Assembly (NCBI GenBank): GCA_963823665.1
Contig: CAWGMQ010000004.1
Span: 2,560,001-2,624,000, forward strand
Origin: an uncultured Planctomycetota bacterium
Lineage (GTDB): Bacteria; Planctomycetota; Planctomycetia; Isosphaerales; Isosphaeraceae
DNA: 64,000 bases
Direction: 5' to 3'
Numbering within the stretch: position 1 is the stretch's first letter; every line of letters starts with the position of its first letter. The notes under the pieces are model-generated. The model saw only the letters and a list, made by a program, of their open reading frames with translations. It searched no databases and had not been told where the DNA came from. Of the stretch, positions 1 to 18,292 are shown in pieces. The position numbers and the translations under genes are program-made.

Positions 1-156
1 GGCACCAATCGAGGCGCGCGCCGAGTCGCCGAGCTCGGCTGAACGGCGCTCGAGGCGGGCGACTTCGCCCCCGAATCCCATGGTGCGCAGTGCGAAGGAA
101 TAGCGGGAGCAGGTGTAAACCGCCGCGCCGATCAACGCGGCCAGCAGGAAGGTCAT
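1..156 (-). CDS. 5' part of a membrane protein, probably TadB-like pilus platform protein (runs off the window)
   Basis: ATG at 156 overlaps the CpaF stop (TGATG). The frame reads MTFLLAALIGAAVYTCSRYSFAL... and is open to the edge. tadB usually follows tadA. Confidence 0.45.
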   Translation of the reverse strand, partial: MTFLLAALIGAAVYTCSRYSFALRTMGFGGEVARLERRSAELGDSARASIGA

Positions 157-1957
157 CACGCAACTCCTTTGAAAAGATCCTGGGGAGTCAAGCCGCCGGC
201 ATTCTGGAGGCGCTGAAAATGACGAGAGACGAAGCCGGTCGGCCTGAGTCTCTGTTCGATGGGATCGAAACCGAACAGGGTCTTGATCGCGACCGAGCCG
301 GAGAGATCGAAGCCGCTGACCTCGCTGATCGAGGAGACGAGCCGTTTGCCCGACGCGGTGCGAGAGAGCTGCACGACGAGGTGGACCGCGGATTCGATCT
401 GATGGCGCACGGAGTGCGCGGGGATGTCGGCCCCGGCTTCCATGGCAAGGAATTCAAGGCGTGTGATGGCATCGCGGGGGGTGTTGGCGTGGATGGTGGT
501 CATTGAGCCTTCGTGGCCGGTGTTCATTGCCTTGAGCATGTCGAGCGCCTCGTCGCCGCGGCATTCGCCGACGACGATGCGATCGGGCCGCATGCGAAGG
601 GCGTTGCGCACGAGGTCGCGAATCGAGATCTTGCCTGCGCCTTCGGCGTTCGCCGACCGGGCCTCGAGCCGCACGACGTGTGTGGCGCCCAGGTGCAGTT
701 CGGCGGTATCCTCGATGGTGATCACGCGGTCCCCGGCGGGAATGGAATCGGACAAGGCGTTGATGAGGGTTGTCTTACCGGTTCCGGTGCCGCCGGAGAC
801 GATGCAGTTCAACCGGACGCGCACGGCGGCGGCCAGAAAACGGGCGGCGCCAGAAGGCATCGCGCCGCGGGCGACCAAGTCATCCAGGGTGAGGCGGATG
901 GCGGGAAACTTGCGGATGGTGACCGCGGCACCGCCGACGGCAACCGGCTCCAATGCAACGTGAGCACGCGAACCGTCGACCAAGCGCACGTCGACGAGCG
1001 GGCATGCGGGGTCAACGCGGCGATCGGCGCGTGAGACGATTCGGACGATTACGTTCGCGAGCGAGGCGTTCGTCGGAAATGACCGGCCGGTGAAGAACAG
1101 GCGTCCGTCGCGCTCGACGTAGATCGCGCGGGGAGGGACGACCATGACCTCAGAGAGGAGCGGCGAATTGAGCAGATCCTCGAGAGGACCGTCGCCGAAG
1201 ACCATGTCCTTGATGGCCTTGGCGATGAAGCGGGACGCGAGGTAGTCGACGTCGGGCGGGTCAAGGCGGCGGCCTGGCCACCACGAGTCGAACTGTGCGT
1301 GGAGGGTGGCGAGGCGATCGGCGGCATCATTGCCGGAGGAAAGATCGAGAGCGGCGTCGGTGATCTGGGAATAGAGGGCTTCGCGGGGGGGGACGGGTAC
1401 GGCCGGCCGGCGCCAGGCAGGCCCATGTGATTCGGTACCAAGCAGCCGATCCTCGGCGGCGCTTTTGACCGCACGGCCCGCGAGATGGCGGCGCAATTCG
1501 GGCAGTAGCCAGAGGGGCGATCGCCGGGCGGCGTGGAGCGCGCTCTCTTCGACAGCGGCGACATCCGCCGGGCGAGGGTTCTTGAAATCGACGTTACCAA
1601 GGGAGGCCACGGTTTCATGGTGAATGGGGCCGAGGGCGGAGTCGACGTCGGCGTCGAGATCGTGCGCAGGCTGACCGGAGGCGATGAGCTGAAACTGGTA
1701 CGGTTGTGCCCGCGCGGGACGATTTCACCGATCGAGATCGTGCGCCGTTCTGAGCGCTCGCCGTCCCAGATGGTGATCTGAAACGGCCCGGCGGATGACA
1801 GCGGCTCGAAGTCGATGGCGCGGGCGAGGACAAGCGGGTGCTGGACGCGAGCCTGGCAGCCGGGGCCTGAGCCGAGCGTGAACGGCCGGTCGAGGGGAAG
1901 GCCTTCGATGGCCAGGACGTCGCCGTGTGAAAGCGTGAGCAACAGGGTGAGGGTCAT
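156..1957 (-). CDS. cpaF: Tad/CpaF pilus ATPase with a probable N-terminal FHA-like domain (frameshift near 1715)
   Basis: ORF 156..1610 has GGTGTGKTT, TIEDTAEL, LRMRPDRIVVGECRG and GHEGSMTTIHAN, and its frame stays open to 1724. The start of ORF 1049..1957 (PFTLGSGPGCQARVQHPLV...ISIGEIV) looks FHA-like and is coupled to the cpaB stop. Confidence 0.85.
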
Positions 1958-2775
1958 CGATCGGGCTCCGGCTGCGGGCTGGGGTCATCCTCCGAGCGGT
2001 GTACGATCAGCGAGCGCAAGTGGGGGCCGCCGCTGTTGCGGGCGGTTGCCCGGCGCAAGAGCGCGAGGTTTTCATCGGAGGAGCTCGCCGGGACAGCAAC
2101 CATCACGTGATCGCCGTAGCCGTCGGGTGAGACGGCCGCGATGCGGAGCGGACCGACCCTCGCCACCGTGGCGGCAAGCTTATCCTCGCGCGAAGCCGGC
2201 TCGTGCCGCGCGATTTCAAATGTGACGCTCGAGCCGACTCGCAGCCACTTCATGTTGTGAGCCACCGAGTCGAGACTGACCACGACGCCGTCTTCGCCCG
2301 GGCGCAACGGATTGGTTTCGAATCGGATATCGGACCAAAGGACGAGCGCGCTTGCGGGAAGCGCGCGATCGAGCGTCTTGCCCACGAGATCGTCGGCATC
2401 GCGCCAAGCCACGACGGATTCGGTGGTGCGGTCGCTCACGTCGGCGAGCTCGAAGCGGCTCAAGTCGGCCCGGCTCAGCATGTAGCCCGCCGGGCGCGCC
2501 GAGGAGATACGAACGACGGAGACCGAGCGCGGAACGGCGCTTGTCATCCACTGCCACGAGGCGAAGCTCGCGGCGAAGGCAAGGCCGAGAGCCGGCCATA
2601 ATCCCGCGCGCTCGGGGCTCAAGGCCGTTTTGACCCGGGACGCAAGATTCACAGGCATCGATGCGTTTGCAGTTTTGATCATCGCACTCAAGTCTCCCAT
2701 TCTCTTACGTGAAGCAGGGTTTGTATTTTCGCGCGAGGTGAGCTTGCTGGCGGTGTCGTGCACGGAGAAGGGCAT
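1954..2775 (-). CDS. CpaB/RcpC-like SAF-domain Flp pilus assembly protein
   Basis: TM segment, then SAF-like VVRISSARPAGYMLSRADL...LVGKTLDRALPASALVLWSDI; Tad context. Confidence 0.7.
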   Translation of the reverse strand: MPFSVHDTASKLTSRENTNPASRKRMGDLSAMIKTANASMPVNLASRVKTALSPERAGLWPALGLAFAASFASWQWMTSAVPRSVSVVRISSARPAGYMLSRADLSRFELADVSDRTTESVVAWRDADDLVGKTLDRALPASALVLWSDIRFETNPLRPGEDGVVVSLDSVAHNMKWLRVGSSVTFEIARHEPASREDKLAATVARVGPLRIAAVSPDGYGDHVMVAVPASSSDENLALLRRATARNSGGPHLRSLIVHRSEDDPSPQPEPDR

Positions 2776-2788: not shown

Positions 2789-3235
2789 CTAGGGCCCGCT
2801 GAAGACGTGACGGAGCACCGGCTCGATCAGCTCGCGCGACGGATGAAAAACGGGATGAGACTCAGATAAATGCAGGTCGCGGTCGTCCCAGACGCCGGCG
2901 CCGGGCACGGCATGGCGCGACTCGGCGAAACGTTGCGGGCCGGTGATCGGTGGCAGGCCCGGGACGGGGAGGCGCGCGGTCCTTCGAACGAGGTCGGCCG
3001 CCACGGAGAGGCGGCCGGGGTTAAGGGGCGATCTTGAGTGTTCTAGATCGCGGTCTTCCCACGCCTGGCGGTGCGCCTGCATGGCCGCGGCGATCGCAGC
3101 ATTGCCGGCGTAACCCACCGCGAAGGTGAGCGCGACGACCGAAAGCAGCAAGGGGATACCGATCAGGAGCTCGATCGCGGCGGCGCCTCGCCGGGATGAC
3201 GCTGATTGCAGCATGCAAGAGCGGGCCATCGTCAA
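2789..3235 (-). CDS. TadE-like pseudopilin
   Basis: RRG|AAAIELLIGIPLLL prepilin cleavage motif with E+5 and a hydrophobic helix. Confidence 0.75.
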   Translation of the reverse strand: MTMARSCMLQSASSRRGAAAIELLIGIPLLLSVVALTFAVGYAGNAAIAAAMQAHRQAWEDRDLEHSRSPLNPGRLSVAADLVRRTARLPVPGLPPITGPQRFAESRHAVPGAGVWDDRDLHLSESHPVFHPSRELIEPVLRHVFSGP

Positions 3236-4764
3236 TGACTCCAGTACTTAGCGTCAACGGGCAGCTTGCGGAAGAGTTCACGCACTTCTGGGGGAAGGTG
3301 TCCGGCGTGAAGGATCTCGGGCACACGCGAGGCCGGAACGATGGTCGCGTTCCAACCGGGGCGCATTGTGGGTGGGTCGAGGCCCAGGTCAGAGCCGAAC
3401 TCGGCGGTTGGCCCGGACCAGTTGAGCGTATCGAACCCGACGACGGGCTGGCGGCCGAAACCACCGGTTGAATGAGGGTTCGCGTTATAGACCATTGCCT
3501 GCGCGAGGGCGACGACCGGCCGCCGCGGGCCGAAGAGAGCCGGCGACGAATACCGCGGCGCGGGGCCGGAGGCGATGGCGATCAGGCCGAAAAGCATGTC
3601 GGCGCGCCGGGAGCCGACGGGAGTCGTCCAGAACTCCGATCCTTTCCAGCCGGGCGCCGACTCGCGAAGAACGTAGAGACCTTGTCCGGAGCGCAGGGAC
3701 TCGTCAGCGCGGGAGAGCAAGAGTGCGTTCGACCAACCCTTGTAGCGGCCGGCGGCGCCGGAGAGGGTGGCGCTTAACATGAGCATGGTGTGGACCGGCC
3801 GGCGCCACGAGTCGACCCAGGGATAGGCCGCACGGGTGTACTGCTTGGTACGGACAGGCCGGAGGTCAGCGTCGGGGATCAGATCGGCGCTGGGATTGGC
3901 GAACGTCCCGGGCGAGCCCGGGTAGGTTCCGGCGCTGCCGCGCTCGGGAAACTCGCGCACAACAGGCAGGCGCGGATGTTCGGGCACGATGGTGGCGACC
4001 CAGCCGTTTGCCGATGCGGTGTCGCGTGCGGCGGCGACGGCTGCCGGCCCCGCGGCATGGACAAGGCGTTCGGCGTGCAGGGCCACCACGGGCAAGAGCG
4101 CGCGATAGCCTTCGACGACGGTCGCATGTGCAACCGCAGCGGCTTCCCAGACGTCGAGCGCGTAGGATTCTTGCACGACCTTGTAAGCGATGCCGTATGC
4201 GATCGCGTACAATACCGGCGCGTAGGCGGAAAAGAAGACGCTGGCCGCCGCGGCCTTTCCCAGGGACATGTAGCCGTGCGCGACCAAGCCCCATTCGCGC
4301 AGGGCGACCCGGGCGTCATAGATGGTGGCGCCAGCGCGCACGGGCTCGGTGAGCTTGTTGGTCATGAACGACAGCTCGTAATTGAACGCTCCGGTGGTCC
4401 GGAGCGCGATCTCGAGTGAAGTCAGCAGCCAGGTGTCGACGCGCTCGCGGCGGGCGATATTGGGGCCGCCAACCGCATCGTGAAGCGCGATGAGCGCGGC
4501 GAGCTGCCCGCTCGCGTGGTTGTCGCCAACGATCCCGTTCAGAGCGCGTGTTTCTGTCTGGGCGGCGGCGATGGCCGCCGCATCGGCGGCGTTCTGCGCT
4601 TCAACCTTGGCACGGGACGAGCGGTGCACGTTGATTGCGGCGGCGAGCAGCGCAACGAGCACGATCACGACCATTCCATGAAGGGGCGCGATGGCGCCGG
4701 ATTCGTCACGGAGAAGCGTGCGTCTCGATCGGGCACACAACAGCATATTAGAATCGTGGAACAT
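3232..4764 (-). CDS. TadG-like pilus-associated protein
   Basis: RDESG|AIAPL...TM...AQNAADAAAIAAA, the TadG N-terminal signature. Likely start MFHDSN at 4764 inside ORF 3232..5187. Confidence 0.75.
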   Translation of the reverse strand: MFHDSNMLLCARSRRTLLRDESGAIAPLHGMVVIVLVALLAAAINVHRSSRAKVEAQNAADAAAIAAAQTETRALNGIVGDNHASGQLAALIALHDAVGGPNIARRERVDTWLLTSLEIALRTTGAFNYELSFMTNKLTEPVRAGATIYDARVALREWGLVAHGYMSLGKAAAASVFFSAYAPVLYAIAYGIAYKVVQESYALDVWEAAAVAHATVVEGYRALLPVVALHAERLVHAAGPAAVAAARDTASANGWVATIVPEHPRLPVVREFPERGSAGTYPGSPGTFANPSADLIPDADLRPVRTKQYTRAAYPWVDSWRRPVHTMLMLSATLSGAAGRYKGWSNALLLSRADESLRSGQGLYVLRESAPGWKGSEFWTTPVGSRRADMLFGLIAIASGPAPRYSSPALFGPRRPVVALAQAMVYNANPHSTGGFGRQPVVGFDTLNWSGPTAEFGSDLGLDPPTMRPGWNATIVPASRVPEILHAGHLPPEVRELFRKLPVDAKYWSH

Positions 4765-5422
4765 AATTGATTCCCAGGCCATGTTCGGGGAGGGCTGTCG
4801 GCACGGTTGCTTCGGCGTGGATTTCGTAGACCCACGGGTTGGGCGCCCAGGAGGCGCGGTGGCCGATTGCCCTACCCAGGAGTGCGATGCGGACGGGATA
4901 CCGGAAGGTGACGGCCGCATGGGTGCCGCGACCGGCGCGGTGGGTGGCGACGGAGGTGGCGGACCTTGCATAGTCGGTACGTGCGGCGATGTAGCGCGGC
5001 GGATATGGCCAGGCAGCCGCCAGGTCAGATGCGGACTGCTGGGCGGCAGCGCTCGAGGGACCGGCGTGATGCGCGGAGTCTGCGCTCGAGAACGGGACCA
5101 GAGCCAGCACGGCGGCGCGCTCGGCAGCCCGGTGGGCCAGGAGCGGCGTGGCGGCGTTCCAGGCGCCGGCGGAACGTGCAGCGGCAAAGGCCGCGTAGGA
5201 CGTGCCGCATTTCGCCAGAATCACCAGGCTCGACTCGATGAAAATGGCGATGAGAAGCATATAGAGAGGCAGCGCCATGGTGAATTCGATGGCGGCTGTG
5301 CCTTGCTCATCGTGGCGCAGCGCACGCCAGCGAGCCGTTCTGGCGAACAGGCCCCGCGCTTGCCGGACCACCCAGGCGCCCGAGCCGACCCAAGCTGCCA
5401 GCCAGAAGCTTACCGCAACCAT
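4748..5422 (-). CDS. TadE-like pseudopilin
   Basis: DEQG|TAAIEFTMALPLYMLL...AAFAAARSA. Confidence 0.8.
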   Translation of the reverse strand: MVAVSFWLAAWVGSGAWVVRQARGLFARTARWRALRHDEQGTAAIEFTMALPLYMLLIAIFIESSLVILAKCGTSYAAFAAARSAGAWNAATPLLAHRAAERAAVLALVPFSSADSAHHAGPSSAAAQQSASDLAAAWPYPPRYIAARTDYARSATSVATHRAGRGTHAAVTFRYPVRIALLGRAIGHRASWAPNPWVYEIHAEATVPTALPEHGLGINYVPRF

Positions 5423-5499: not shown

Positions 5500-5679
5500 T
5501 CAGAGAAGCGGGCTGGTCGTGGCCTCGATGATAAATCGCTCGACGACCGAAAGGGCTTTCAATGCCAGCGCGATCAAACCGGCGGCGAGCGGGAGGACTG
5601 CGCCGAGCAACATGACTTGTTCGAAGGCGACGGCACCGCGCCGCCGCGGCTTACCACTGGGCCGCATTCGATACTCCAT
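5500..5679 (-). CDS. Small Flp-like pilin 2
   Basis: C-terminal 59 aa of ORF 5500..6084: RRRG|AVAFEQVMLLGAVLPLAAGLIALAL. Confidence 0.6.
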   Translation of the reverse strand: MEYRMRPSGKPRRRGAVAFEQVMLLGAVLPLAAGLIALALKALSVVERFIIEATTSPLL

Positions 5680-6343
5680 CAACGAAGATCGACACGAGTG
5701 TTCCAAGCGCCAGGAAAGGCCCGAGCGGAATGGCGGTACGAGGCGCCGGCGCATCTGCGCTTGTGCTTCGGTCGAGTTGTGGCGCGGCGAGCGGGACGGT
5801 TCCTGGTTGGCGATACATTGAAACCGCGAGCCTGCCGTAGCGCAGTGCGAGCGTGAACACGCCGGCGGCGAGCAGGCTCCAGAGCAAGGCATTGACCCCG
5901 GCCCACGGGCCGAGCAGGCCGCCGATGGCGGTTGCCAGCTTGACGTCGCCGCCGCCGCATGCCTTGAGCTCGTACATGAGCACGAATGCAAAAAAGGCCA
6001 GCGCGGAGCCGAAAAGCCAGCCGGTGAAGCCGACCGCGCCGAGAGCATGACGCACTTCGGGGGGCGAAACGGCACACATGGCATTGGTAAGCGCGCCGAA
6101 GGCGACAGCCGGAAGCGTGACCTGATTGAGTATCACGAAGCGCCTGAGATCGCTTTCAGCCGAGATGCCCAGCACGCAAAGGAGGACGAAGCCCGTCGTG
6201 GTCGGCAGCGGCGCGGGCATTCCTGCCCACGCCGCCGCGGCGAACCAGCAGGGCGCTATCGCCAGCAACAAGACTGCCGCGGCCCAGCCGCCTGGCAGCC
6301 CGGACGCGTCTGTAGAAGCCGAGCGTTCGCCGTTATTCGACAT
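5651..6343 (-). CDS. Prepilin peptidase, A24 family (CpaA/TadV)
   Basis: SDLRRFVILN and GGGDVKL aspartate motifs, multiple TM segments, directly after the pilin. Confidence 0.85.
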   Translation of the reverse strand: MSNNGERSASTDASGLPGGWAAAVLLLAIAPCWFAAAAWAGMPAPLPTTTGFVLLCVLGISAESDLRRFVILNQVTLPAVAFGALTNAMCAVSPPEVRHALGAVGFTGWLFGSALAFFAFVLMYELKACGGGDVKLATAIGGLLGPWAGVNALLWSLLAAGVFTLALRYGRLAVSMYRQPGTVPLAAPQLDRSTSADAPAPRTAIPLGPFLALGTLVSIFVDGVSNAAQW

Positions 6344-6350: not shown

Positions 6351-6542
6351 TCAGTAAGGTTTCCAGTGGATCAGGACGTCGATTCCGTCGATGACGTACT
6401 TCTGGATCTTTGGAAAAGCGACCGTGACGGCGAACCCCATCACGGCCGCGGCGATGCCGAGCCATGCGATTTGCTCGAACGCCACGCCGCGCTCGTCGGC
6501 ATGCAGTCGTTTCAGCCAGGTCAAGAAATTGGTTGTGCGCAT
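6351..6542 (-). CDS. Flp-like major pilin
   Basis: 63 aa MRTTNFLTWLKRLHADERG|VAFEQIAWLGIAAAVMGFAV, with a GAGG RBS upstream. Confidence 0.7.
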   Translation of the reverse strand: MRTTNFLTWLKRLHADERGVAFEQIAWLGIAAAVMGFAVTVAFPKIQKYVIDGIDVLIHWKPY

Positions 6543-6782: not shown

Positions 6783-9467
6783 TCAGTAGCCCCCGCGCTG
6801 CAAGTCGCCTGCGATCGACTTGCCGCCGGCGACGCGGACGGAGAGACAGGTGCAGGCAGCCAGGACGATGGCCGACCAAGCGAACACAGCGATGATGCCG
6901 GCGAGCGGCTGGCCCTGGCATGATGCAAAGACCTTGGCGGCGGCGGCCCCGGGGGCGGAGGGAGCGATCTGGCGTGCGACGAAGTTGTTACCGGCCCAGG
7001 CTGCGGCGCGAGCCAGCGCCAGGCCGAGGGCGCAGGCGGGAAGCACGAGAAGCGCAAGCTGGGCGAGGAAGAGGCGCCCGGCCGCGCGGGTGGGCATGCC
7101 GAGAACGCGCAACGAGGCAGTCTCGGCGGTCTTGGCGGCGGCGTGCAGGTAGGCCAGCATGCCGACGACGAACAGGAGCGCCATCACGAAGGCGCCCTCG
7201 AGCAGGATTCCGCCGCCGTCGACGATGAATCGCACGGCGCGGAACTGCTCGATCGCTTCGCGGTAGCGCACGTAGAAGCCGAGGTCAGGGCAGATCTGGC
7301 GCGCCACTCCCTCGGCCGGTAGCACGTCGCCCAGGTTGTGGAAGACCAATTCGGCTCGGGTGTATTCGCCTGGTGGCAGCGGCGGCAGGACGGGGGCCAG
7401 CGCCGAGCTGGGAACGGTCTGAAACGCGAGCAGCTCGCCATCGCCGGCGTGGATTTTCTTCATTTCGGTGACGAGATCGGCGAGCACGGCGCGTGCCATT
7501 GATTCAGTCATGAGGTGATCGGCTCGATTGGCGGGATCAAGCTTCAGAACGAGCTCCGAGCCGTCTTCAAATGTGCGCACGGGAGCGAACGGCGCGCTGG
7601 CGAGCCGGGGGATGCGGTTGTCTTTCAGCCACTCCGACGTCGCGCCGGGGATTGTGGCGCGGATTTCGGTGACAATGGGCACGTCGTCGGCCAAGGGGAT
7701 GCCGCCCTGCCCGCGCAAGACAAATCCCCAGCCGGTTTGCCATGAGGTAAGGCGCCTGAGGAAGCCGTCACTGGCCAGGAGCTTGTTCGGGTCGTCCTTC
7801 CAATCGCTGCGCAGGACGGAGTCAGGAAAGTCGACGACGACGGCCGGGACGCTAACAATTCCGCGCCAGCCTTTCATGCGAGGATCATCTTCCTGCACGG
7901 ATTCGGGGATGGGCACGCCGCCCAAGGATAGCTCGATCGAGGTTGGATACTTACCGTCCGGCTGGTCGGGGCCGATCCGCCAGTAGTACTTCCGCAGCCA
8001 GCGCAGGGGGACGAACAGCACCGGCTGGTCGACGGCGGCGGCAGGCTGGGGCGCCGGATTGGACGTGAGATAGATCATGCCGCGCGGCGCCTGCGCACGC
8101 TCACCGGGCGAAACGACGGCGAAGTGGGGATCACCGGGCTGGTACGAAACGAGCGTGGTTTTGCGGGTGCGGCCCGCGGCGTCGTGAAACTCGACGCTGG
8201 AACGTTCCATGATGAGGCTCAAGCTATCCAAGCCCGCGAGCTTGTGCTTGAGCTGATGGATTTCGTCCGGGGTGATCACTGGCCGCTCGCGGCCGGGGCG
8301 GCTGGCGAAGGCGTCGATACGATTGATCTGGGGATTGTGGGGCGGTGTTTTGCGATCGAGGTTGGCGCGTACGCCCTGAGCGAGGTCGCGAAGCGAAGCG
8401 AAGCATGCGACGGCAAGGGCGACGAGAGCGAGGACCGCCAAGCGGGCCGTGCGGCGTTCGGGCGCCATGTTCTCGCGGACGGCATAGCGGCAGATTGTGG
8501 CGAGCCTGGGGACAACGCGCCTGGGCAAGGCCCCGCCCGACGGGGGAGCCGGGGGCTCTTTTGCGAGCGGGATGGCGGTGCGGCCGTAGACGGAGAGCGC
8601 AGCGGCCAGATTGTCGGCGAGCGTGCGGACTTCGGCGCGCGAGCGCTCGCAGCCATTGACCGGGGGTAAGATCGGGCGCGGTGTGCCGTCGGGCCAGGGA
8701 TCGAGGCAGTTGGGGTCGTCGCGGTCCTGGAACGGAAATACCAGCGGTGCGGGGCCGTTGCCGCCCTGTGCGACGGTCAGCCAGAAGCGGTCGGCGACCG
8801 CCGCCGCGAGGTGAAGGTCATGGCAGGAGAAGATCACGAGCGCGCCCTGGCGTGCATAAGCGCGCGCCATTGCCAGGAGATCCGGGGCAGTGCGGGCATC
8901 GACCTGCGAGGTTGATTCGTCAAGAATGACGACGATGGGGCCGCCGTAGAGCGCACGCGCGAGCAACGCGCGCCCGACCTGGCCACCGCTCGAGACGCCG
9001 GGGTACTGATTGACGGCTTCTCGCAAGCCGACGCGCTCGAGGAGGAGGTCGACGCTGCCTGCGTCCCAGCCGCCGAGAGCCGTGCGGAGCGCGGCATTTT
9101 CGCGAAGCGTGAGGCTCGAGAGCAGCCCCGGAAGCTGCGGCCCGAAACCAATGTGGCGGTTGCGGAAGTCGCCGCAGAGCTTGGAGTCGCCGGCGAGTCC
9201 GTGCCCGCGCGCGCCGAATTCGTAAGGCTTGAGCTCATGCCCGTCGGGGACGAAGTAGCTGATCGTTCCATCGACGGGCGCGTGCATCGTGGCGAGCGTA
9301 TAAAGCAGCGTTGACTTACCGGTGGCATTGCCGCCGATCAACGCGATGATCTCTCCTGACCGACCGCTGATCGCGGGCACCTCCAGTCGAAAGCCCTGTG
9401 ACCCGAGGCCGACGATCAAGCCGTTGGTGGAAAGGACGGTTTCACCACACAATGGTTGCTTGCTCAT
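6783..9467 (-). CDS. MacB-like fused ABC ATPase / FtsX-type permease
   Basis: Walker A GGNATGKST, signature SSGGQ, Walker B VVILDES, H-loop SCHD. Then one TM, a large periplasmic region and three C-terminal TMs (ETASLRVLG). Confidence 0.8.
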   Translation of the reverse strand: MSKQPLCGETVLSTNGLIVGLGSQGFRLEVPAISGRSGEIIALIGGNATGKSTLLYTLATMHAPVDGTISYFVPDGHELKPYEFGARGHGLAGDSKLCGDFRNRHIGFGPQLPGLLSSLTLRENAALRTALGGWDAGSVDLLLERVGLREAVNQYPGVSSGGQVGRALLARALYGGPIVVILDESTSQVDARTAPDLLAMARAYARQGALVIFSCHDLHLAAAVADRFWLTVAQGGNGPAPLVFPFQDRDDPNCLDPWPDGTPRPILPPVNGCERSRAEVRTLADNLAAALSVYGRTAIPLAKEPPAPPSGGALPRRVVPRLATICRYAVRENMAPERRTARLAVLALVALAVACFASLRDLAQGVRANLDRKTPPHNPQINRIDAFASRPGRERPVITPDEIHQLKHKLAGLDSLSLIMERSSVEFHDAAGRTRKTTLVSYQPGDPHFAVVSPGERAQAPRGMIYLTSNPAPQPAAAVDQPVLFVPLRWLRKYYWRIGPDQPDGKYPTSIELSLGGVPIPESVQEDDPRMKGWRGIVSVPAVVVDFPDSVLRSDWKDDPNKLLASDGFLRRLTSWQTGWGFVLRGQGGIPLADDVPIVTEIRATIPGATSEWLKDNRIPRLASAPFAPVRTFEDGSELVLKLDPANRADHLMTESMARAVLADLVTEMKKIHAGDGELLAFQTVPSSALAPVLPPLPPGEYTRAELVFHNLGDVLPAEGVARQICPDLGFYVRYREAIEQFRAVRFIVDGGGILLEGAFVMALLFVVGMLAYLHAAAKTAETASLRVLGMPTRAAGRLFLAQLALLVLPACALGLALARAAAWAGNNFVARQIAPSAPGAAAAKVFASCQGQPLAGIIAVFAWSAIVLAACTCLSVRVAGGKSIAGDLQRGGY

Positions 9468-9634: not shown

Positions 9635-12262
9635 TCAGGGCAAGTCTTCGGGTTTGAGCGAGAGGTGCAGCTCGCTCGAGACCGGGTTGGCCACGACCGG
9701 GGTGCGCTCGAGGACGATCTTTTCCAGCCGGGCGGCGCGCTCCTCGAGCGTTTCGGCGAGGTTGTAGGTATCGGCGCGGGAGATCGTCCGCTTGACGCTG
9801 GACAAGCAGGCGAGGCGAATTGGCAGCTTGGAGAGTGCCGCTTCAATCTCGTCGATCGACGGGTCGTCGGGCAGATCCGTGATCGGATCGACCGAACGGG
9901 CACCGTCGGCCGCGGCGCGATCGGGCGTATCTCCGCCTGCGACCGTTTCAACGGTCGTTGCGAGCGGTTTCGGTCCCGCGGCCGGCGGGCGCTTTCGCTT
10001 CTCTCCCAGCACAGTTTTCAGGCACTGGATGATCAGCTTGTGGTAGGCCTCGGTGCCGGAATCGAGGTCGGCGGCGGCGGCGAGTGACTCCTTGAGCACG
10101 CCCCCCAGCTCGCGGCAAGTGAACGAGAGCCGCAAGACCTCGTTCTTGGTCAGAAGCACGCGCGGCAGCCAGCGCGGGCCGTGGTCGCCGGCGACGGTGG
10201 CCTGGGTGAACAGGAAGCTGAAGACGGTGTTGCCCATCCGCTTCTGCATTTCCTTGAGCACGTGCGGGGGGATGATTTCCTCGTAGCGATCGCGGCCGGC
10301 GCGGGTGTCGAAATCGAGCACGGGGGTGCCATCCTCGGTGCGGGTGTACAAGGAGGCGAACCCCGCGCGTTCCTTGGTGGCTCGTTCGCGGCGCTCTTCG
10401 ATGATCGTTTCGAGCTCGCCGGCGAGCTTGCGGGGGACCTCGCCGGCTGCGTCTCCGAACAAGTCCATGGTGGTCGAGATGCCGCGGGAGCCAGCGGAGA
10501 GGCCTGACATCTGCGAATCCCAGAGCGGGTCGGTGCGATCTCTAAAGCGTGCGAAAATCGTATTGAGCATGACGCGCGGAAACTGTCCACCGTCGTCCGT
10601 GCCCTCCAAGAGAGCCTTGACCGCCGCGGCGTCGAGCTCGGTGCATTTCTGCTGCGCGTAATCCGTGTCATTCTTGTAGTGCGGCCGAACGTCGGAGATC
10701 ACGATTCCGATCGTGGCCGCACCCGGGGTGTGGTAGGAATCACCGGTCTTGCGGAAGTACTTCTCGGTCATGTGCCGGATCGCCTCGTAGGCTTGCTCGG
10801 GTCCGTCACCGCCGCCGGAGCAGCGCGTGGCTGCTTCGGCCATGTAGGTGCGGAACCGGCTCAAGCCAAGCGAGGTCGAGATGTCGAAGAAACCGTCAGA
10901 ATCCTCGATCATCTTGTCGTGATCGGATCGGTCGCGGAACAGGATCACGCCGATCTTGAGTCGGATCTGATCGAGCTCGGACCGGGTGCGTTCGGATTCG
11001 GCGAGCTTGCCTGCGTATCGATCGACGGCATCAATGACGCGAGGGTAGATCGCATGCATGCTGCCGGTTGCGTCGATTGCGAAGACGAGCTCAATCGTTC
11101 TGGTTTGCAAGGTTGCCTTGAGGAGGCGGTCGCGATCGCGCCTGGCCTCTTCGTTGACCAAGTCCTCGACGACCACCGAGCCTCCGTCGTGCAGACGGGC
11201 GGGCACGGCGAGGTGGTAGGCCTCGAGCTTCTGGTCACCGACGACGATCGAGCGCGTGGCCAGGATGAGAAAGCCGATGGCGTTATCGGCGAGGGGAAGC
11301 GGCGCCTTGCCGTCCTTGAGTGTGGTTTCGCGGAAGATGGTGGCCACCGTTTTGCCTTCGGCATCGACCGGCTCGCCGCCAGCGGCGGCGGCAACTTGCG
11401 CAGACGAGCCGAACATCTCGATCGGTTTGCCGGCGGCCATGCGAGCGAGATAGGCTTCCCTGGCGTAGTTGGGGATGACGCTCATGCGAGTCGGCACGGG
11501 GGCGATCAACTCGATCGGCACGATGCCGGCGAGCTTGCGGCGGAAGTGGTCATTGCCCGGGTCGTACAGGACGAACTCGCTATCGTTCGAGAGCACGGCG
11601 AACGCGTTGTGGCCGCGAACGATGAATTTGACAATGTAATAAAAGCCGAATCGCGCGATCGGGTTGCCGTCGTCGGGCCCGGCGGCGGCGGCCTGCTTGT
11701 CGAACGACTCGAGTGGGACGGGCGTGTAGAAGGCAAAATAGCCGCGAGTGGGATCGGTGAGCGCCTTGAGAGGGATGTCGGCCTGGCGGTTTCCCTCCTT
11801 CACCGCGGGGAGCACTTTGTCAATCCAGGCGCGCTCGGGACTTCCCTTGGGCCAATGAGCATAGAAATACTTGCGACCGTGGTTGGCCGTCTCCGGCCGA
11901 GGGTTGTCTTGCACCCAGTCGGCCTCGACCCAGCCGAAGAGCTTGCGAAATTCGAGGGTCTTGTGGTCGAACTCGGCGACAAGAAGCCGATTCGGGACTT
12001 CGTTCCGGGCGAGGATCCACACCACCTTGCCGGCCTTGAGCGGAGGATCGGCACTGACAAGCCGGTCGGCGGCAGGACCGGCGTAAATCGGCAGGTTATC
12101 GGCGAGGATCAAGCCCAGCCAATACTTGCCCTTCACGTTGGGATGGGTCTTGACGGTGTAGGGAGGCTTCAGATCGCCGGGCGTCTCGATGTCCGAGTCG
12201 GCGACAGCGTGCGCCGAGCCGGCCAAGACAGCGATCGCGAGAGCGAAATTGCGAAGATTCAT
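9635..12262 (-). CDS. Secreted VWA-domain protein resembling the periplasmic C-terminal region of T6SS kinase PpkA
   Basis: Signal peptide; MIDAS-like IELVFAIDATGSM and GGGDGPEQ; C-terminal VLLTKNE...LSKLPIR...EDLP pattern. Confidence 0.7.
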   Translation of the reverse strand: MNLRNFALAIAVLAGSAHAVADSDIETPGDLKPPYTVKTHPNVKGKYWLGLILADNLPIYAGPAADRLVSADPPLKAGKVVWILARNEVPNRLLVAEFDHKTLEFRKLFGWVEADWVQDNPRPETANHGRKYFYAHWPKGSPERAWIDKVLPAVKEGNRQADIPLKALTDPTRGYFAFYTPVPLESFDKQAAAAGPDDGNPIARFGFYYIVKFIVRGHNAFAVLSNDSEFVLYDPGNDHFRRKLAGIVPIELIAPVPTRMSVIPNYAREAYLARMAAGKPIEMFGSSAQVAAAAGGEPVDAEGKTVATIFRETTLKDGKAPLPLADNAIGFLILATRSIVVGDQKLEAYHLAVPARLHDGGSVVVEDLVNEEARRDRDRLLKATLQTRTIELVFAIDATGSMHAIYPRVIDAVDRYAGKLAESERTRSELDQIRLKIGVILFRDRSDHDKMIEDSDGFFDISTSLGLSRFRTYMAEAATRCSGGGDGPEQAYEAIRHMTEKYFRKTGDSYHTPGAATIGIVISDVRPHYKNDTDYAQQKCTELDAAAVKALLEGTDDGGQFPRVMLNTIFARFRDRTDPLWDSQMSGLSAGSRGISTTMDLFGDAAGEVPRKLAGELETIIEERRERATKERAGFASLYTRTEDGTPVLDFDTRAGRDRYEEIIPPHVLKEMQKRMGNTVFSFLFTQATVAGDHGPRWLPRVLLTKNEVLRLSFTCRELGGVLKESLAAAADLDSGTEAYHKLIIQCLKTVLGEKRKRPPAAGPKPLATTVETVAGGDTPDRAAADGARSVDPITDLPDDPSIDEIEAALSKLPIRLACLSSVKRTISRADTYNLAETLEERAARLEKIVLERTPVVANPVSSELHLSLKPEDLP

Positions 12263-14395
12263 GGGAGCTCCTGTGCGTTAAGGGACCGGGAAACACGGGT
12301 TCGGGGAAGTACGCCAGCCGCCGAGAGCGGCTTCACGCCCGCGGACTGAAGCACCTGTTCGGCCTGGATGCGAGCGCCAGCGATGATGTCAACGTCGTCC
12401 GCGGTATCGAGACGGTGGGGTTTGACGTAGCGCCGAGCGAGCTCGGCGTCTTTGATGTAATGCGGCGGGCCCACGACAACCGTTCCCAGCTTAATCTCCG
12501 CCGGCAACTGCTTGAGCGTGACGTCGAGCCAATGTGAGTTGCGGGAGGGGTCGTCGGTGCGAGGGCCGTACGGAGTGACCACGATGACGACCAGGCGGTC
12601 GGCGAGGTCGCCGGCACCCGGCGTCCGGAAGATGTTGTGCAGTGTGGCCGCGAGACCGACCGGAGCGATGGCATCATCCTGCACACGTGCGAAGGGGATT
12701 TCGCCCTTCGCGTTGAGCAGCTCGGCGCGGCCGGTTGGAGGCCAATCGCCCGCGCCGGGGCTAACCCGAGTGAATGTGAGCAAATCGTAGTGCGTGCGCC
12801 GTGCGCCCTCGACGAGATTGCGAACGACGTCGGTCTGCGCCTGCCGGATTCGGTCTTCCGTCTCGGCGCTTTCGGCCGACACTCGCCCTGGATCGTTGAT
12901 GACGAGGATGAGTGGCGGCACGTCGTTCCCAAGCACATACGAGCGCGCCGTGGATTTTTTTGCATCCGGCTGGGTTTCCGCGGCCTGGGCATCGAGGCGC
13001 TCGGCGGCGGCCCGGGCGTCGAGGCGCGGAGAATCGACCGACGGAAAGAGGAGTGGGCGCCGGTGTGACGACCGGATCTCGAGGTCGCTTCCGGCCACCA
13101 TTTCCCAGGTAAATCCCTCGGGAAGGCGGAGCCGGTTCGTGTTCGGCTCGTAGGCGAGGATTACGGGCTCAGCGGAGCCGGGGGTCGTGAGCCTGAAAAT
13201 GCTGCCGGCGGGCAGCCCACCACGCGGAGGCACGAGGTCCCAGCCGACGACGGCAGGAGAGAGCTTGATGTTGCCGGACCAGAGCGCCTCGTTGTTGATA
13301 GGCCAGTCGATCGGGGCAAAAGCGGGGCCGAGCGAGATCCGCACCCTTTCGGGCGTGCGATCCCAGGCAACCGAGCCCGGCGCAGCGGAGAGCTTCGCAT
13401 TCTCAAACGAAGCCGTGGTGACTTGCACAAATGCACCCTTTTTACCTGCGTCGATAAGAACGGATGGATCGCGCGGCCATCTTTTCACGCCTTTCGGCAG
13501 CGTGAGGTCAACATGCAACGACGTTGCCGTGACCTTGGCGATGAGCTCGACGGGCTTCCCGGAGGCAACGTTGAGCGACTGACCACTCACGAGCGCCGGA
13601 CTTGCCTGGAAGAACCGCTCGAGGCTCTGGTCGAGCGCCGGCGTGAGCGAAAGACCGGCGGCGGGGTCTCGGGGGCTCTGCACGCGCGCTGGGCTCGAGG
13701 CTCTGGCCCAGGGCGGCAACCAGAATGGCGGCAAGGGAAATTGAGCGGCCCTTGGAGCTTGTGATGAGCTTGTGCGGGCCGGCCGTGGCGCTCACTTTCT
13801 GAACTTCCAGCGCACGTCCAAGCCCGGCGACTTCGGCCTTGACGTTGAGCATGATGGGCTCGAAACGGCCGCGTGGCAACTTGGGCACGATGCGCCGGTC
13901 AACGATCTCGAATGGCACCGCGTGGTATCCGGGAACGCGTAGCTGGTCTCCGGCGACCGAGGCGTACGGTGCCAGTGTGGGATCGACGCCGAGCTTCGCG
14001 AGGTCATCGGCAGACGGTAACTGGGGCGTGCGCTTCGGGAGCTGGATCAGGAGGCGAGCAGAAGCGTTCAGGTCGAGCACAAAGGTTTGAACGCCATCCG
14101 GCTGACGTATCGTGAAGGTGAGCCGGGGGTCTGCACCGGACAAATCCAACGCACGGACACGTACGAAGATCGCGCCGTTTGTTTTGTCGCAGAGGCAGTC
14201 GGACGGTTGAAGCTTCGTGGTGTAGGATCCCGACCACCACTTGGCGGTGTAGTCGGGCAGGTCGACTTGCGTTTCCTCGGTCGCGTTTTCGAGGCGGATC
14301 GTGATCCAGGGCCCGTTGGGCTCATCGGCCGCGGCGGCGAGCGGGGTCATGAGAAACAGGAGCGGGACCAGGATTCGGGAAGAATAGATGCGCAT
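12259..14395 (-). CDS. Secreted hypothetical protein (frameshift near 13740), possibly with a degenerate C-terminal VWA-like fold
   Basis: ORF 13508..14395 starts with a signal peptide and ORF 12259..13734 continues it. Both ends are coupled to neighbours (TGATG, ATGA). Confidence 0.55.
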
Positions 14396-16196
14396 CAGCG
14401 ATTCTCCAGGAAGAGGGCGAGGCGGAAAGACACATCAAGGGGACGGTCGAAGGGCGCGAGGGTGATTGGGCGTTCGTAAGTGCTCTTACGGCCGGAGAAT
14501 GCCGATCCGAGCGCCGATGCGAGGCGCGCATCGCGGTCGAACGGGCCAAACTCGAGGACGTTTCCGGCATCGGGCGGAGAGATCCGGTAGGGACCGGGTG
14601 CCGCGTGCGCGGGTAGAAGATGAGAAACGGGGGCCCCAGGCGCGCGAGTGCCGACCAGAAGATCGGCGAGGCGGCGGTCCCAGAGCATCCAGCGGGCGGG
14701 CCTGGCGATGCCATCATTGATCCAGGCTGCGTAGGCGACCGCCTCGACGTAGCTGATGCCGATGACGGGGAGGCAATGCGTCGACTTGCCCGGCAGGTCA
14801 TCGAGATCGACGGCGATGGGTATGCTGTCAAGGAGGGATGGCGGCGCCACGCCTACGTAGGACGCGAAGTGGGGCGGCGGGGCCGGGTCGTGCATGAAGG
14901 GGCCGTCGGCGACGATCGTGGCCCAACGTTCGGGGTCGCCGCCGGAGACGGGCACGGTTCCGCGCAACGGGTTAGCGTGATATCCCTGAAACGCACGCAC
15001 CTCGGCGGGAAGCGGACCGAACTCGCGCGCGGCCTGCGCGAGGAACGGACGGCCGCTCTTGAGGAACTGATTCATGTAAGGACCGATTTTCACGGGTGCC
15101 TGGTCGACGACCCAGCAACCGCCCGTGACGGGGATGATGGAGACGGCGGCCTGGTCGCGGATGCGGACGGCGGTTGCGAACGGGCCCTCGCCGCCGGTCG
15201 TCACGGGAACGACGTCGTCAACGTAGTGCCGGAGCGCTGCGGGCAGCCGGATCTCACCGATCCGGATCTCGGACTCGGCTTTGGGCCCGGGGATCGGGAC
15301 CTCGGGTTTGGGCGTTTCCAGCGCGTCACTTGCTACGGGCTGCGCCGGACGGGACCGCGCCCAGGCGATCGCGGCCGCTCCGGCCAGGAGGCTGCAACAG
15401 AGGCCTGCGGCCGCCACGATGACGAGGCGGCGGCTGAAGCGCGAGCCGCGTCTCCTGAGCTCATCGAGGATGAGCTCGGCGGAGGGACGAGCCTCCGGGT
15501 CGGGGTGGATCATTCTGGCGAGGAGCGAGTCGAAAGGCTCGAGCTGGGCGAAGAGCTCCGGCGGGATCGGAATGGGGCCATTCATGATCTGTCTGTCATA
15601 TGATAATTCGTCGACAAAAGTGCAGACCCGGCCGATGAAGCCGGGGCCGTGCGCCACGGCGAGGACCGAGACGCCGAGTGAGTAGATATCGATTGCGGTC
15701 GTGCGCAGGCCGTACAGGAGCTCAGCGCCTGAAAGGTGCGAGCTTCGCGGCGGGCCAGAGGGACGGCCTCACCGGGCCGCAGCCAGAAACCGTCGGTGAG
15801 GCGCGAGGGGGAGTGGCTGTCGGGCAGGAGCAAGGTGCTGGGGGTGATGTTGGCATGGATCATGTCGGCCTGGTGGGCGTAAGCCAGGGCGCGCGCGCCA
15901 GCCCGGCAGCGCAGCGATCACGACGCGAACGGGCACGCGTGGAATGTTTGCAGCGCAGCGGCCGCGAGAGTCGGCGTGAGCGATCTGGGTGAGGTCATTT
16001 TCGACGTGATAGATGGGCTCGATGTGATCACAGCCCTCGTGTAGCTTCATCTGGCGGAGAGCGCCGTGGCAGCGAACCGGCTCGGATGACTTGAAGTTCC
16101 GGCAGATACCGGTGAGGTTGTGCCGGCGCAGGCCCAGGGTTCAAATTCGGTTTCCGCAGTCGTCGCCACTGGAGGGGAGAAGTGCAACACGGACAT
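14395..16196 (-). CDS. Pseudokinase-TM-FGE/sulfatase-modifying-factor domain protein (frameshifted)
   Basis: Kinase remnants IHANITPSTLLL, RLTDG, DIYSLG, MIHPDPEARPSA; a TM; FGE-like LPVIGISYVEAVAYAAWIN, GNVLEF, SFRLA; AAGGAG RBS before ATG 16196. Confidence 0.65.
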
Positions 16197-16296
16197 TGCT
16201 TGCTCCTTTGCGGTCATGAAGAGAGCGTGCGCCGCGTGGCGCATGCGCGTGGAAGCGTGTGAATGTCATCCTGTACGTAAGGATGAGGGGCCGATT

Positions 16297-17478
16297 TCAC
16301 GCGAGGCCGAAGAGGCGGGCGCATTTGACGGGCTGCGTGCCGGGGCCGAGGATGGGGAGCTTGCCCGAGAACGAGCAGGAGTTTTCGGACATTTCGAGCC
16401 GCGGTCCGGTGTCGTCATACTGGGTCAAGAAGAGGGGTTTGACGCGAAAGCCGCGGGTGCGTGCCGGTGCGATCTCGGCGATCTCGGCGACGCGACGCCG
16501 GCCGTCGTGGTCGCGTGTGACCTGGACGATCATGTGGACGGCGGCGAGCTGGCGGCGCACGGCCGATTCGGGGATGGGCGGGTCCGCGGTGAGCGAGAGC
16601 GATTCGAGGCGAACGATGGCGGCGCGCGGGGACTCGGCGTGGATGGTGGTCATCACGCCGGCGTGCCCGGAGAGCATGGCCTGAGCGACGTCGAGGGCTT
16701 CGGAGCGGCGCACTTCGCCGACAATGATTCGATCGGGGCGCATGCGGAGGCTGGCCTGGAACAGGTCGCGGATGGAGATGGGGCTGGCACCCGCGCCTGC
16801 GGGCTGGGCCTCGAGCGCGACGACGTGCGGGTGGTTTTCCAGGAACAGCTCGGAGGTATCTTCGATCAAGATCACGCGCTGGGCCTTGGGAATGCAGCCG
16901 GCGAGCGCGTTGAGGACAGTGGATTTGCCGGCGCCGGTGGGACCGGAGACGACGATGTTGCGCCCCGCCAGGACGGCGATCTCGAGAAACTCGGCAGCGG
17001 CGTCGGTGATTGCACCAAGCCTCAACAGATCGTGAAGGCCGGCGGAGGCTCGCCGGTAAGGCCGGATATTCACGTGCGGTTCACTGGCGCATGGTGGTAT
17101 GATCACATGCACTCTAGAACGATCCTCGAGGCGCGCGTCGAGGATCGGCTGCTCGGGGCTGACGGTGCGCCCGACAGCCTCGGCGACGCAGTTGATCAGG
17201 GCATTGAGCTGCCAGAGGCCGCCCGGGAAGGTCCGGCCGGTGGGCTCGAGGATTCCACGGCGCTCGATCAGGACGTGGTCGGGCCCGTTGATCAAGATCT
17301 CGGAGACTTGCGGGTCGTTCACGAGGTCGAGGAGCGGGCCGAGCAGGCCTTCCTGGACACTTTGATGCACGGAATTGACCGTCACGGATCGGCTCCTATG
17401 GTTGAGGTCGCGCGCGGATCGGCCGTGCGGCGGGAATGGCGCGTGCGCATTCCCGGGCGCCGGCCCGATTGGAATCAA
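16297..17478 (-). CDS. cpaF: Second CpaF/TadA-family ATPase (true start probably near 17370-17385)
   Basis: SEILING, GPTGAGKST, LIEDTSEL, LRMRPDRIIVGEVR, GHAGVMTTIHAES. Confidence 0.85.
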   Translation of the reverse strand: MIPIGPAPGNAHAPFPPHGRSARDLNHRSRSVTVNSVHQSVQEGLLGPLLDLVNDPQVSEILINGPDHVLIERRGILEPTGRTFPGGLWQLNALINCVAEAVGRTVSPEQPILDARLEDRSRVHVIIPPCASEPHVNIRPYRRASAGLHDLLRLGAITDAAAEFLEIAVLAGRNIVVSGPTGAGKSTVLNALAGCIPKAQRVILIEDTSELFLENHPHVVALEAQPAGAGASPISIRDLFQASLRMRPDRIIVGEVRRSEALDVAQAMLSGHAGVMTTIHAESPRAAIVRLESLSLTADPPIPESAVRRQLAAVHMIVQVTRDHDGRRRVAEIAEIAPARTRGFRVKPLFLTQYDDTGPRLEMSENSCSFSGKLPILGPGTQPVKCARLFGLA

Positions 17479-17488
17479 CGGCCGCGAA

Positions 17489-18292
17489 TCAGTTGTTCTT
17501 GCTGTCGGCGAGGATGAGATTGGCGATCGCGCTGAGCTTCTTGCAGAGAGCCCGGCTGATGGCTTTTGCGTCGCTCGGCTCCAAGTTCAAGGCAGCAGCC
17601 GTGAGCCGGGTGTCGAAACGATGGAGGTACCACTGGGCGGCGAAACGCCGTTCGCCGATCGTCAGTGCATTTATGAGGACGTGAACCTCACACTTCAACG
17701 CGGCAAGTTTGGCGAAACACGCTTCGAGCCAGCGGGAGACGGTTGGTCGGCTGACGCAGAAATCGCGAGCGAGGTCGATGCCGCGTGCGCCATCGTACTG
17801 TGAACGGAGAAAGAGGGTGCGTTCCTTGCTGTCGAGACAGATGAGCAGCGTAGCCAAGCGCTCGCGGTCGTGCTCGAGCTCTTCGTCGTTGACGGCAAGG
17901 CGGCCGGGATCGAGATTCTCGGGGTCGCCAATCGCCTCCACCTCGACGCTCGCATCACACTCGATCCCGCGCTTTCGAAGGCGATCGTTGAGCACGTTCG
18001 TCAGGATGCGTTTCATCCAGGTGAGGACGGTGGCCCCATCTGGCCGCCAGAAATTGCCGCGCAGGCCGGCCTCGTAAACCCGCGCGACCGTCTCCTGCTG
18101 GAGATCTTCGGCATCGTCGAGCGCGTGGGAGATCCGGGCCGTTCCGGGGCGGGGCTTCAACCGCGCCAACTCAAACTCCGCGTGCTTGATCAAGTGCGGG
18201 CGGGTGAGGCGAACCAACTCGTCGATCGCGGGAATGTCACCCTGATAAAACCGCTTGAGCAGATTCGCGTGCCGCAGGTCGTCTTTCCTCAT
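17489..18292 (-). CDS. ECF-type sigma-70 factor with C-terminal extension
   Basis: GDIPAIDELV, DAEDLQQE, TWMKRILTNVLNDRLRK (region 2); DLARDFCVSRPTVSRWL (region 4 HTH). Confidence 0.75.
   Translation of the reverse strand: MRKDDLRHANLLKRFYQGDIPAIDELVRLTRPHLIKHAEFELARLKPRPGTARISHALDDAEDLQQETVARVYEAGLRGNFWRPDGATVLTWMKRILTNVLNDRLRKRGIECDASVEVEAIGDPENLDPGRLAVNDEELEHDRERLATLLICLDSKERTLFLRSQYDGARGIDLARDFCVSRPTVSRWLEACFAKLAALKCEVHVLINALTIGERRFAAQWYLHRFDTRLTAAALNLEPSDAKAISRALCKKLSAIANLILADSKNN

Follow-up and report, generated by a model that had tools for sequence, protein, structure and literature searches.

The planctomycete gene cluster described here encodes a Tad pilus and carries, among its pilus genes, several parts that recall the trigger of a type VI secretion system (T6SS). 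The window, by which we mean the whole stretch of 64,000 nucleotides analysed, is C4 2560001-2624000 (contig CAWGMQ010000004.1) of the 16.46-Mb genome (G000) of an uncultured member of the Isosphaeraceae, which consists of 12 contigs and is 91.9% complete. The cluster occupies 156..18292, lies wholly on the - strand and is read from 18292 to 156, with the start of tadB (1..159) behind it. An earlier reading of the letters alone, called the original prediction below, had described it as a Tad cluster wired to a T6SS-style trigger module, and the gene content, order and co-orientation that it gave are borne out by open reading frames and library matches, the labels of cpaB and of the motor's FHA domain being the weak ones. 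Between the pseudokinase gene and flp lie three genes that we refer to as the trio: protein X, a vWA protein and an ABC-FtsX fusion. The features are as follows.

17489..18292, - strand: sigma factor of the ECF type, with which the run opens; matches TIGR02937 above its cut-off (E 5e-13)
16297..17478, - strand: CpaF2, short second Tad motor ATPase (PF00437, E 6e-42)
14395..16199, - strand: pseudokinase-transmembrane (TM)-FGE fusion with one TM helix; reading through its three breaks gives about 600 aa
12259..14395, - strand: protein X, secreted, 711 aa with the break at 13683 read through; conserved C-terminal domain
9635..12262, - strand: secreted three-part vWA protein, 875 aa, MIDAS-like DxTGS motif
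6783..9467, - strand: ABC ATPase-FtsX/MacB-type permease fusion, TagT+TagS-like (PF00005, E 5e-17; PF02687, E 0.003)
6351..6542, - strand: Flp-type major pilin, 63 aa; G/xxFE prepilin motif and hydrophobic helix, no library match
5651..6343, - strand: TadV/CpaA prepilin peptidase (PF01478, E 3e-14)
5500..5667, - strand: second small pilin; prepilin motif and TM helix, same position in genome G506
4748..5422, - strand: TadE-like minor pilin, 224 aa, open reading frame intact; G/xxxxEF motif
3232..4764, - strand: TadG-like minor pilin, marker of this Tad subtype (PF13400, E 1e-7)
2789..3229, - strand: TadE-like minor pilin (PF07811, E 0.089; motif and TM helix)
1954..2775, - strand: CpaB/RcpC-like protein, by position only; no Pfam or NCBIfam match
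156..1957, - strand: main motor CpaF, about 601 aa, one break near 1720 (PF00437, E 5e-56)
1..159, - strand: start of tadB, continuing left of the window
L004 18445-19308, left of the window: tadC
L004 17764-18399, left of the window: FHA-TM gene

Locus, reading frames and surrounding genome

By its gene content the machine is a Tad (type IVc) pilus system: a CpaF/TadA ATPase, TadB, TadC, a Flp pilin, a TadV peptidase and TadE/G minor pilins are all present, and the Walker A, Asp, Walker B and His boxes are intact in both motors. The flp gene holds the same position in relatives, and a local hidden Markov model (HMM) built with the window cpaB matches the gene at the same position there; the cpaB orthologue of G506 has no library match either. 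A sigma-like gene precedes cpaF2 in G444 and G450 as well, a likeness in position to the window's ECF gene. The DNA left of the window had been singled out as the place to look for tadB and tadC, a secretin or effectors. There (C4 2540001-2560000, L004) lie the rest of tadB, tadC and the FHA-TM gene, then unrelated genes; library searches recognised neither a secretin (CpaC/RcpA) nor TadZ in the cluster, and three secretins are encoded elsewhere in the genome. We reject a T6SS core just beyond the window, as the Tad genes go on for 3 kb and give way to unrelated genes, and genome-wide searches of the 91.9% complete assembly for TssC (PF05943) and VgrG (PF04717) found neither, with positive controls. 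As far as these searches reach, the trigger-like parts stand here without a T6SS, as predicted.

The partial translational coupling that had been read from the letters is also seen, with overlaps of 1-4 nt at three junctions: pseudokinase/X (1 nt), X/vWA (4 nt) and cpaB/cpaF. The gaps between the vWA and ABC genes and between the ABC gene and flp are 167 nt and 240 nt. Three genes are split in the assembly, namely cpaF (near 1720), the secreted gene X (13683) and the pseudokinase gene (three places). Indels at 13683, 15724 and 16123 are present in short-read soil-run contigs that match the stretch in exact pieces, one low-depth contig each, and unrelated genes of the window likewise carry frameshifts, which together point to long-read error, so that faulty assembly is the probable cause of these three frameshifts; near 1720 and 15905 the breaks are without short-read support. 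No short-read contig spans the locus from end to end, and the module order is therefore that of the long-read assembly. GC is similar in both modules, GC3 is 0.78-0.83 in the long intact genes, and terminal repeats flanking the trio were looked for without any being found.

Such breaks could also be those of a decaying or passively rearranged locus, in which the trio landed by chance and the pseudokinase, FGE and FHA parts are degenerating and control nothing. These parts are indeed far more diverged than in relatives, and a search of 5.8 billion proteins with the window pseudokinase-FGE returned no homologue, only itself; two of the breaks are not backed by short reads, neither the vWA nor the TadG gene is seen in the one other genome of the genus (84% complete), and G000 holds a second Tad cluster of canonical type. 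We nevertheless consider decay improbable, as three breaks coincide with short-read indels and unrelated genes are frameshifted too, the motifs of both motors, of the ABC protein and of the vWA MIDAS are kept, and the long intact genes keep their GC3.

The second Tad cluster, on C8 (L006 6020-17640), comprises two flp genes, tadV, cpaB, cpaF, tadB, tadC and tadE/G, with a TadZ/CpaE-like receiver protein inside and a kinase gene and an FGE-domain gene about 3-9 kb upstream.

Conservation of the two-motor Tad operon

The TadG protein has five homologues (P0037-P0041) at 48-71% identity, and its profile has matches in 21 of the 400 further class genomes that were searched. The neighbourhoods of all 21 loci were read, several of them on short contigs (3-23 kb). 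The order that recurs, whole or as two blocks, is cpaF2-flp-tadV-pilin-tadE-tadG-tadE-cpaB-FHA/cpaF-tadB-tadC-FHA/TM, and the second motor is present at 14 of the 21 loci. From cpaF2 to tadV the distance is 0.2-1.7 kb in the 11 co-linear loci, against 9.95 kb in the window. In a quick tree of 34 ATPase domains the window cpaF2 is the sister of all 14 cpaF2 from relatives, with a support of 99, and the main motor falls outside a group (support 89) that unites the relatives' FHA motors with the motor of the canonical C8 cluster. The length of both branches makes the window a deep offshoot of this Tad type.

A dead kinase and non-canonical FHA domains

The window kinase lacks the Gly loop and the VAIK Lys and has HAN in place of HRD. 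Read through, with an X written at the breaks, it scores 28.9 bits on an HMM of the Tad pseudokinases and 21.2 on one of active kinases. Orthologous pseudokinases, which form a distinct clade with a WxRWH motif, adjoin 12 of the 21 Tad loci; the HRD Asp is missing in 11 of them, and the twelfth is without the catalytic-loop Asn and the DFG Asp. Judged by these residues, the kinase is catalytically dead in the window and in 12 of 12 orthologues. In six orthologues the C-terminal part is an FGE domain (PF03781, E 4e-12, 5e-12 and 5e-5), in many cases preceded by PEGA repeats; a kinase-TM-FGE gene and FHA genes do accompany this type of Tad system. The window's own FGE domain reaches a Pfam E of 0.06; the ESM Atlas gives 0.95, with 28 of 30 matches being FGE, and a single-sequence fold model has a pLDDT of 32.

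Some relatives carry the pseudokinase with other extracytoplasmic ends, TPR-like or unrecognised and not FGE (G765, L111 11753-15373; G568, L121 9114-11957; G757, L117 12991-15813), which suggests that its sensor end has been swapped between lineages. Elsewhere a protein with two tandem kinase-like domains and no TM helix follows the Tad operon (G710, L113 9191-11305; G762, L116 6256-8358; G576, L136 10052-12121), and the first domain of the G710 protein falls in the pseudokinase clade.

Contact sensing by Kil and other Tad machines is usually guessed to involve a phosphothreonine cascade with FHA domains as its readers. The phosphothreonine-binding motif of such domains consists of an Arg and a Ser; a canonical example stands in our FHA-TM alignment. 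The Pfam FHA model PF00498 is matched by the CpaF N-terminal domains of 12 of 16 relatives. The corresponding piece of the window CpaF scores within shuffled controls, with an hhalign probability of 2%, so of the FHA domain that had been placed on the motor ATPase the part that holds concerns the relatives. The window FHA-TM protein does better (20.2 bits vs 2.5 for the best shuffle), and the FHA-TM profile retrieves GarA/OdhI. The pocket Ser is missing in 16 of 16 CpaF-FHA domains, which keep the Arg in 8 cases; Arg and Ser occur together in none of the 12 FHA-TM domains, and so in none of the 28 FHA domains of relatives overall, and the window's two FHA pieces have neither. The FHA domains of relatives are, on these alignments, real and non-canonical.

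The original prediction had likened the locus to the PpkA-to-Fha1 phospho-switch. As far as sequence motifs can tell, such a switch is not supported, because the kinase is without catalytic residues and the FHA domains are without the phosphothreonine-binding Ser. Classical threonine phosphorylation as in the H1-T6SS would then call for an active kinase acting in trans, with the FHA domains reading phosphothreonine. HRD-intact kinases do flank several of the loci, three more lie in the window, and the FHA Arg is kept in half of the CpaF-FHA domains (8/16). With the pocket Ser gone from all sixteen, no phosphatase gene recognised in the locus and the sole operon-conserved kinase dead, we regard phosphorylation in trans as quite improbable. 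Literature searches that combined Tad with pseudokinases or with Planctomycetes gave nothing among the matches listed, most subscription papers lying outside the search, and one review of bacterial pseudokinases makes no mention of Tad, pilus, FGE or CpaF. The dead-kinase reading thus appears to be new, and the conserved pseudokinase with non-canonical FHA domains is the firmer new point of this analysis.

The envelope trio

Protein X, once read through, is a single frame; an HMM match (E 6e-12) links it to the X proteins of loci L026, L028 and L032. Its N-terminus is signal-peptide-like when judged by eye, and the X gene stands directly upstream of the vWA gene throughout its clade. No Pfam model matches the vWA domain of the window protein. 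An AlphaFold2 model (pLDDT 76) has a central vWA fold at residues ~388-660 (Z 17.0, root-mean-square deviation 2.9 over 203 residues), and Foldseek and VIA-align retrieve generic vWA folds only, the other parts of the model being barely tested. The protein has eight near-full-length homologues at 25-44% identity. Its top match in the Atlas is TssR_VWA/VWA (0.98), and relatives match TssR_VWA (E 7e-6 and 3e-5) and TssR_M (E 4e-8); the window protein itself matches no TssR model and has no Cys in its signal region. The family HMM also matches vWA genes annotated between srfC and ABC, FtsX and SUMF1 genes on two plasmids (E 1e-13 and 8e-12). These matches place the window protein in the TssR/srfABC-linked vWA family. 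A likeness to the periplasmic part of PpkA can be inferred, because the family HMM matches the srf-linked vWA genes and a gene of such neighbourhoods is named ppkA in PMC3608642.

The ABC-FtsX fusion matches MacB (NF007826, E 3e-17) over its ATPase part and is predicted to have 1+3 TM helices with a large periplasmic loop; it is 26-27% identical to the fusions of L026, L028 and L032. At the level of class it corresponds to a TagT/TagS-type ABC ATPase with an FtsX/MacB permease. The trio as a whole appears, from these matches, to be distantly related to TagT/TagS together with the periplasmic part of PpkA or TssR.

Distribution of the trio

Beyond the window, 24 vWA loci were read over 7-60 kb each, 18 of them in genomes, 3 on metagenome contigs and 3 on plasmids. 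The ABC gene is the next gene after the vWA gene in 22 of the 24, the exceptions being a contig that ends at the gene and a partial match. The original prediction had treated the whole as one module and had set beforehand its failure to co-occur with Tad genes as the finding that would speak against it; outside the contigs of the nearest relatives, CpaF, TadB/C or TadG are found in 0 of the 24 vWA loci, and X, vWA or the fusion in 0 of the 21 other Tad loci, where one weak vWA match (E 7e-5) lies 11 kb away in G190. One conserved module is therefore not what these loci contain. The vWA-ABC-FtsX unit recurs without a T6SS at 24 loci, in at least four types of context. Three times X-vWA-ABC/FtsX stands by itself, and seven times GTPase/Hsp70-like genes come first; in G772, in G074 and on the 3 plasmids FGE genes are its neighbours, and the remaining cases are unlinked. 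The three X-vWA-ABC/FtsX contigs share the window's 13-row clade (support 100) and are its nearest readable members; the trio is intact on each of them, and none has Tad genes such as cpaF2, or a pseudokinase gene, upstream.

Searches of 120 genomes of the order, 400 of the class, 400 of the phylum and 252 of family f106 gave distant relatives of the vWA protein and no close one. Scanning with a motif brought up 1 false genome match and 7 metagenome loci, 5 of which, on 3 contigs, are true; pattern scans with alignment A3 gave no relatives. The contigs of the close vWA homologues (45112, 22088, 10209 and 7409) and of the TadG homologues (12044, 20054, 5366, 2115 and 2066) have no size in common, which argues weakly against linkage.

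This distribution bears on the suggestion, a modified form of the predicted wiring, that the trio is a conserved partner of this Tad sub-branch. In it X, vWA and ABC-FtsX would respond to contact or to damage of the envelope, the vWA protein would act as a cross-linker of the pseudokinase's FGE domains, with the TagR-PpkA topology swapped, and the clustered pseudokinase would recruit the FHA motor. Much in the window is in keeping with it: the pseudokinase, X and vWA genes are joined by the 1- and 4-nt overlaps, GC is alike across both modules, and the trio has no FGE gene of its own, which the pseudokinase could supply. The vWA, ABC, FtsX and FGE genes are adjacent on the 3 plasmids and in G772 and G074, and in Pseudomonas aeruginosa the FGE loop of TagR is modelled as binding the periplasmic domain of PpkA, and is needed for duelling (PMC13713981). 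Against this stand the two zero counts, the nearest readable trios, which work without an adjacent FGE gene, and, as a weak proxy, the contig sizes. A wiring of trio to pilus is plausible; that it is conserved in this way seems to us unlikely.

Several vWA loci have features of their own. In L028 9233-17664 (JADMIO011200151.1) three tandem vWA paralogues of one clade lie between one X and one ABC-FtsX fusion, which suggests that one ABC machine has several specificity subunits that can be exchanged. A conserved operon of about 10 genes, including those for a dynamin-like GTPase and an Hsp70-like protein, precedes vWA-ABC-FtsX in G330, G452, G511, G633, G708, G803 and G840 (for example L051 3351-13468, L052 3137-16877 and L059 522-15765), with a Calx-beta protein in G330 and G511. 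An identification of these neighbours as SrfB/SrfC was rejected in spite of the srfABC-like layout, as HMMs from two annotated SrfB/SrfC pairs did not match. G074 (L060 100-3849, L035 2062-19998) has two vWA genes, one ABC-FtsX fusion and two FGE genes, and upstream of these come GAP1-N2 and double-GTPase genes. At L026 1681-4293 the gene next after ABC-FtsX encodes a caspase-like/S41 protease fusion, and the Azospirillum cassette likewise has an S41 gene close by (L079 28365-30035).

Comparison with known systems

The threonine phosphorylation pathway of the P. aeruginosa H1-T6SS is TagQ/TagR/TagS/TagT-PpkA-Fha1-PppA (PMC13713981; PMC3224232). The window resembles it in having a putative FGE-fold domain, a MacB/FtsX-type ABC pair, a periplasmic vWA protein, a kinase fold and FHA domains in one locus. 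It differs in that its kinase, a dead one, has FGE and not vWA as fusion partner, vWA forms a protein of its own, ABC and permease are fused and the FHA domains lack the phosphothreonine Ser; a TagQ-like lipoprotein and PppA were not recognised, and no T6SS core was found in the genome. In the srfABC systems, flanked by ABC, vWA and SUMF1 genes, SrfA is a membrane pseudokinase (bioRxiv 10.64898/2026.09.18.752743). The cassettes linked to them on Enterobacter sp. 638 pENTE01 and Gluconobacter albidus pGS1191_1 share with the window a homologous vWA gene followed by ABC and FtsX, a nearby FGE gene and membrane pseudokinase, and the lack of a T6SS, whereas in the window the partner machine is a Tad pilus, protein X is added and the vWA protein is ~230 aa longer. 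No srfB or srfC match was found in the 44 kb around the locus; a genome-wide search with PF07520 was blank, its control being silent too. TssR of the Bacteroidota T6SSiii membrane complex has three domains with vWA in the centre (PMC10781749). Our protein is likewise a three-part periplasmic protein with a central vWA domain, whose Atlas neighbours and relatives match TssR_VWA and TssR_M, but it lacks the lipoprotein cysteine and a T6SS.

On the side of the pilus, FHA-fused CpaF proteins make up class III (PMC12019362), and KilF of the Myxococcus xanthus Kil system, which has a single ATPase, is FHA-fused (PMC8460266). The window shares with them a Tad machine, a motor that is FHA-fused in relatives, further FHA proteins and a suspected signalling input; unlike Kil, a contact-dependent killing system with one ATPase and a secretin in the cluster, it has two motors, no secretin in the locus and a pseudokinase-FGE protein. 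As FHA-CpaF and T6SS-free tagQRST-ppkA cassettes (PMC3608642) had both been published, the novelty claimed for the combination shrinks to the conjunction: trio and Tad genes together, seen in one genome, and FGE beside a PpkA-like vWA partner with reversed topology, are new.

The closest functional analogy to the conserved part comes from type VIIb secretion, where the pseudokinase domain of YukC co-purifies with the FHA region of YukB, itself described as without phosphate-binding residues, in what is probably a phosphorylation-free contact (PMC9600267). In EssB/YukC with EssC/YukB, as here, a bitopic pseudokinase is paired with an ATPase that bears non-phosphothreonine FHA domains; here, in contrast, machine and ATPase class are unrelated, and the extracytoplasmic part is FGE or PEGA-FGE. 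By this analogy, EssB/YukC-type scaffolding would fit better than a phospho-switch, and a planctomycete clade with a dead kinase and pocketless FHA domains at a two-motor Tad operon points to a phosphorylation-free scaffold of the type VIIb kind.

A probable composite locus

We consider it most likely, with a probability of about 0.55, that the locus is a composite of two modules: a two-motor Tad operon with a phosphorylation-free pseudokinase scaffold, and an inserted envelope trio gained by the lineage. The pseudokinase would be a transmembrane scaffold whose periplasmic FGE-fold domain dimerises or binds a periplasmic partner. In the cytoplasm its dead-kinase domain, much like YukC/EssB, may dock two sets of FHA domains, those of the motor CpaF and those of the FHA-TM protein, with no phosphorylation involved, and this docking would place and license pilus assembly. 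X, vWA and ABC-FtsX would have been gained between the pseudokinase and flp. What the sequences show is the gene content, the loss of catalytic and phosphothreonine-binding residues and the separate distribution of the modules; the protein contacts in this scheme, and any functional link between trio and pilus, are inferred.

Several points weigh against a composite locus. The two zero counts leave out the contigs of the nearest vWA (P0002, P0003, P0005, P0004/P0006) and TadG (P0037-P0041) homologues; these close homologues are similar in number and in identity tiers, which is weak evidence for linkage. On two of the three X-vWA-ABC contigs the sequence runs out within the ABC gene or just past it. 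Within the same draw, the 9 genomes with vWA and the 21 with Tad have no member in common, an outcome with a P of 0.61 by chance alone, and the long basal branches of both window motors make the 21 Tad loci distant cousins. The window's own CpaF FHA and FGE domains match their families weakly, and intact-looking kinases near several Tad loci (G539, G762, G753 and G710) make phosphorylation in trans possible.

A bolder version, doubtful in our view, is that a planctomycete sub-branch has rebuilt a T6SS damage sensor for a pilus minus the phosphorylation. X, the PpkA/TssR-like vWA protein and the TagT-TagS fusion would detect damage or contact, cross-linking of FGE by the vWA protein would cluster the dead kinase and with it the FHA motor and the second motor, and a Tad pilus would be assembled at the contact site. 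If this were true, vWA-ABC-FtsX would be a portable envelope sensor for T6SS, SrfABC, GTPase/Hsp70-like systems and Tad pili. If the unit proves to be wired to the pilus here, this would make it an envelope sensor of a general, plug-in kind whose read-out is new; as the conjunction is seen in one genome only, the plug-in sensor is a lead and not a result.

Other features of the region

On the opposite strand, some 13 kb to the left of the cluster, L004 2-4776 (C4 2540002-2544776) encodes a long RHS/YD-repeat protein whose C-terminal end is variable. Upstream of the ECF gene and on the same strand are a secreted phytochelatin-synthase-family gene and two unannotated genes (18739-19593, 19610-21091 and 21870-22649); the product of 21870-22649 looks, by eye, like a zinc-finger anti-sigma factor. 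Further along the window, a partial second parB copy (29918-30394) lies near tRNA-Leu (31619-31703), about 15 kb from an intact parA-parB pair (45766-47410), and two kinase-WD40 genes and a large repeat-rich surface protein between the two parB copies suggest an island.

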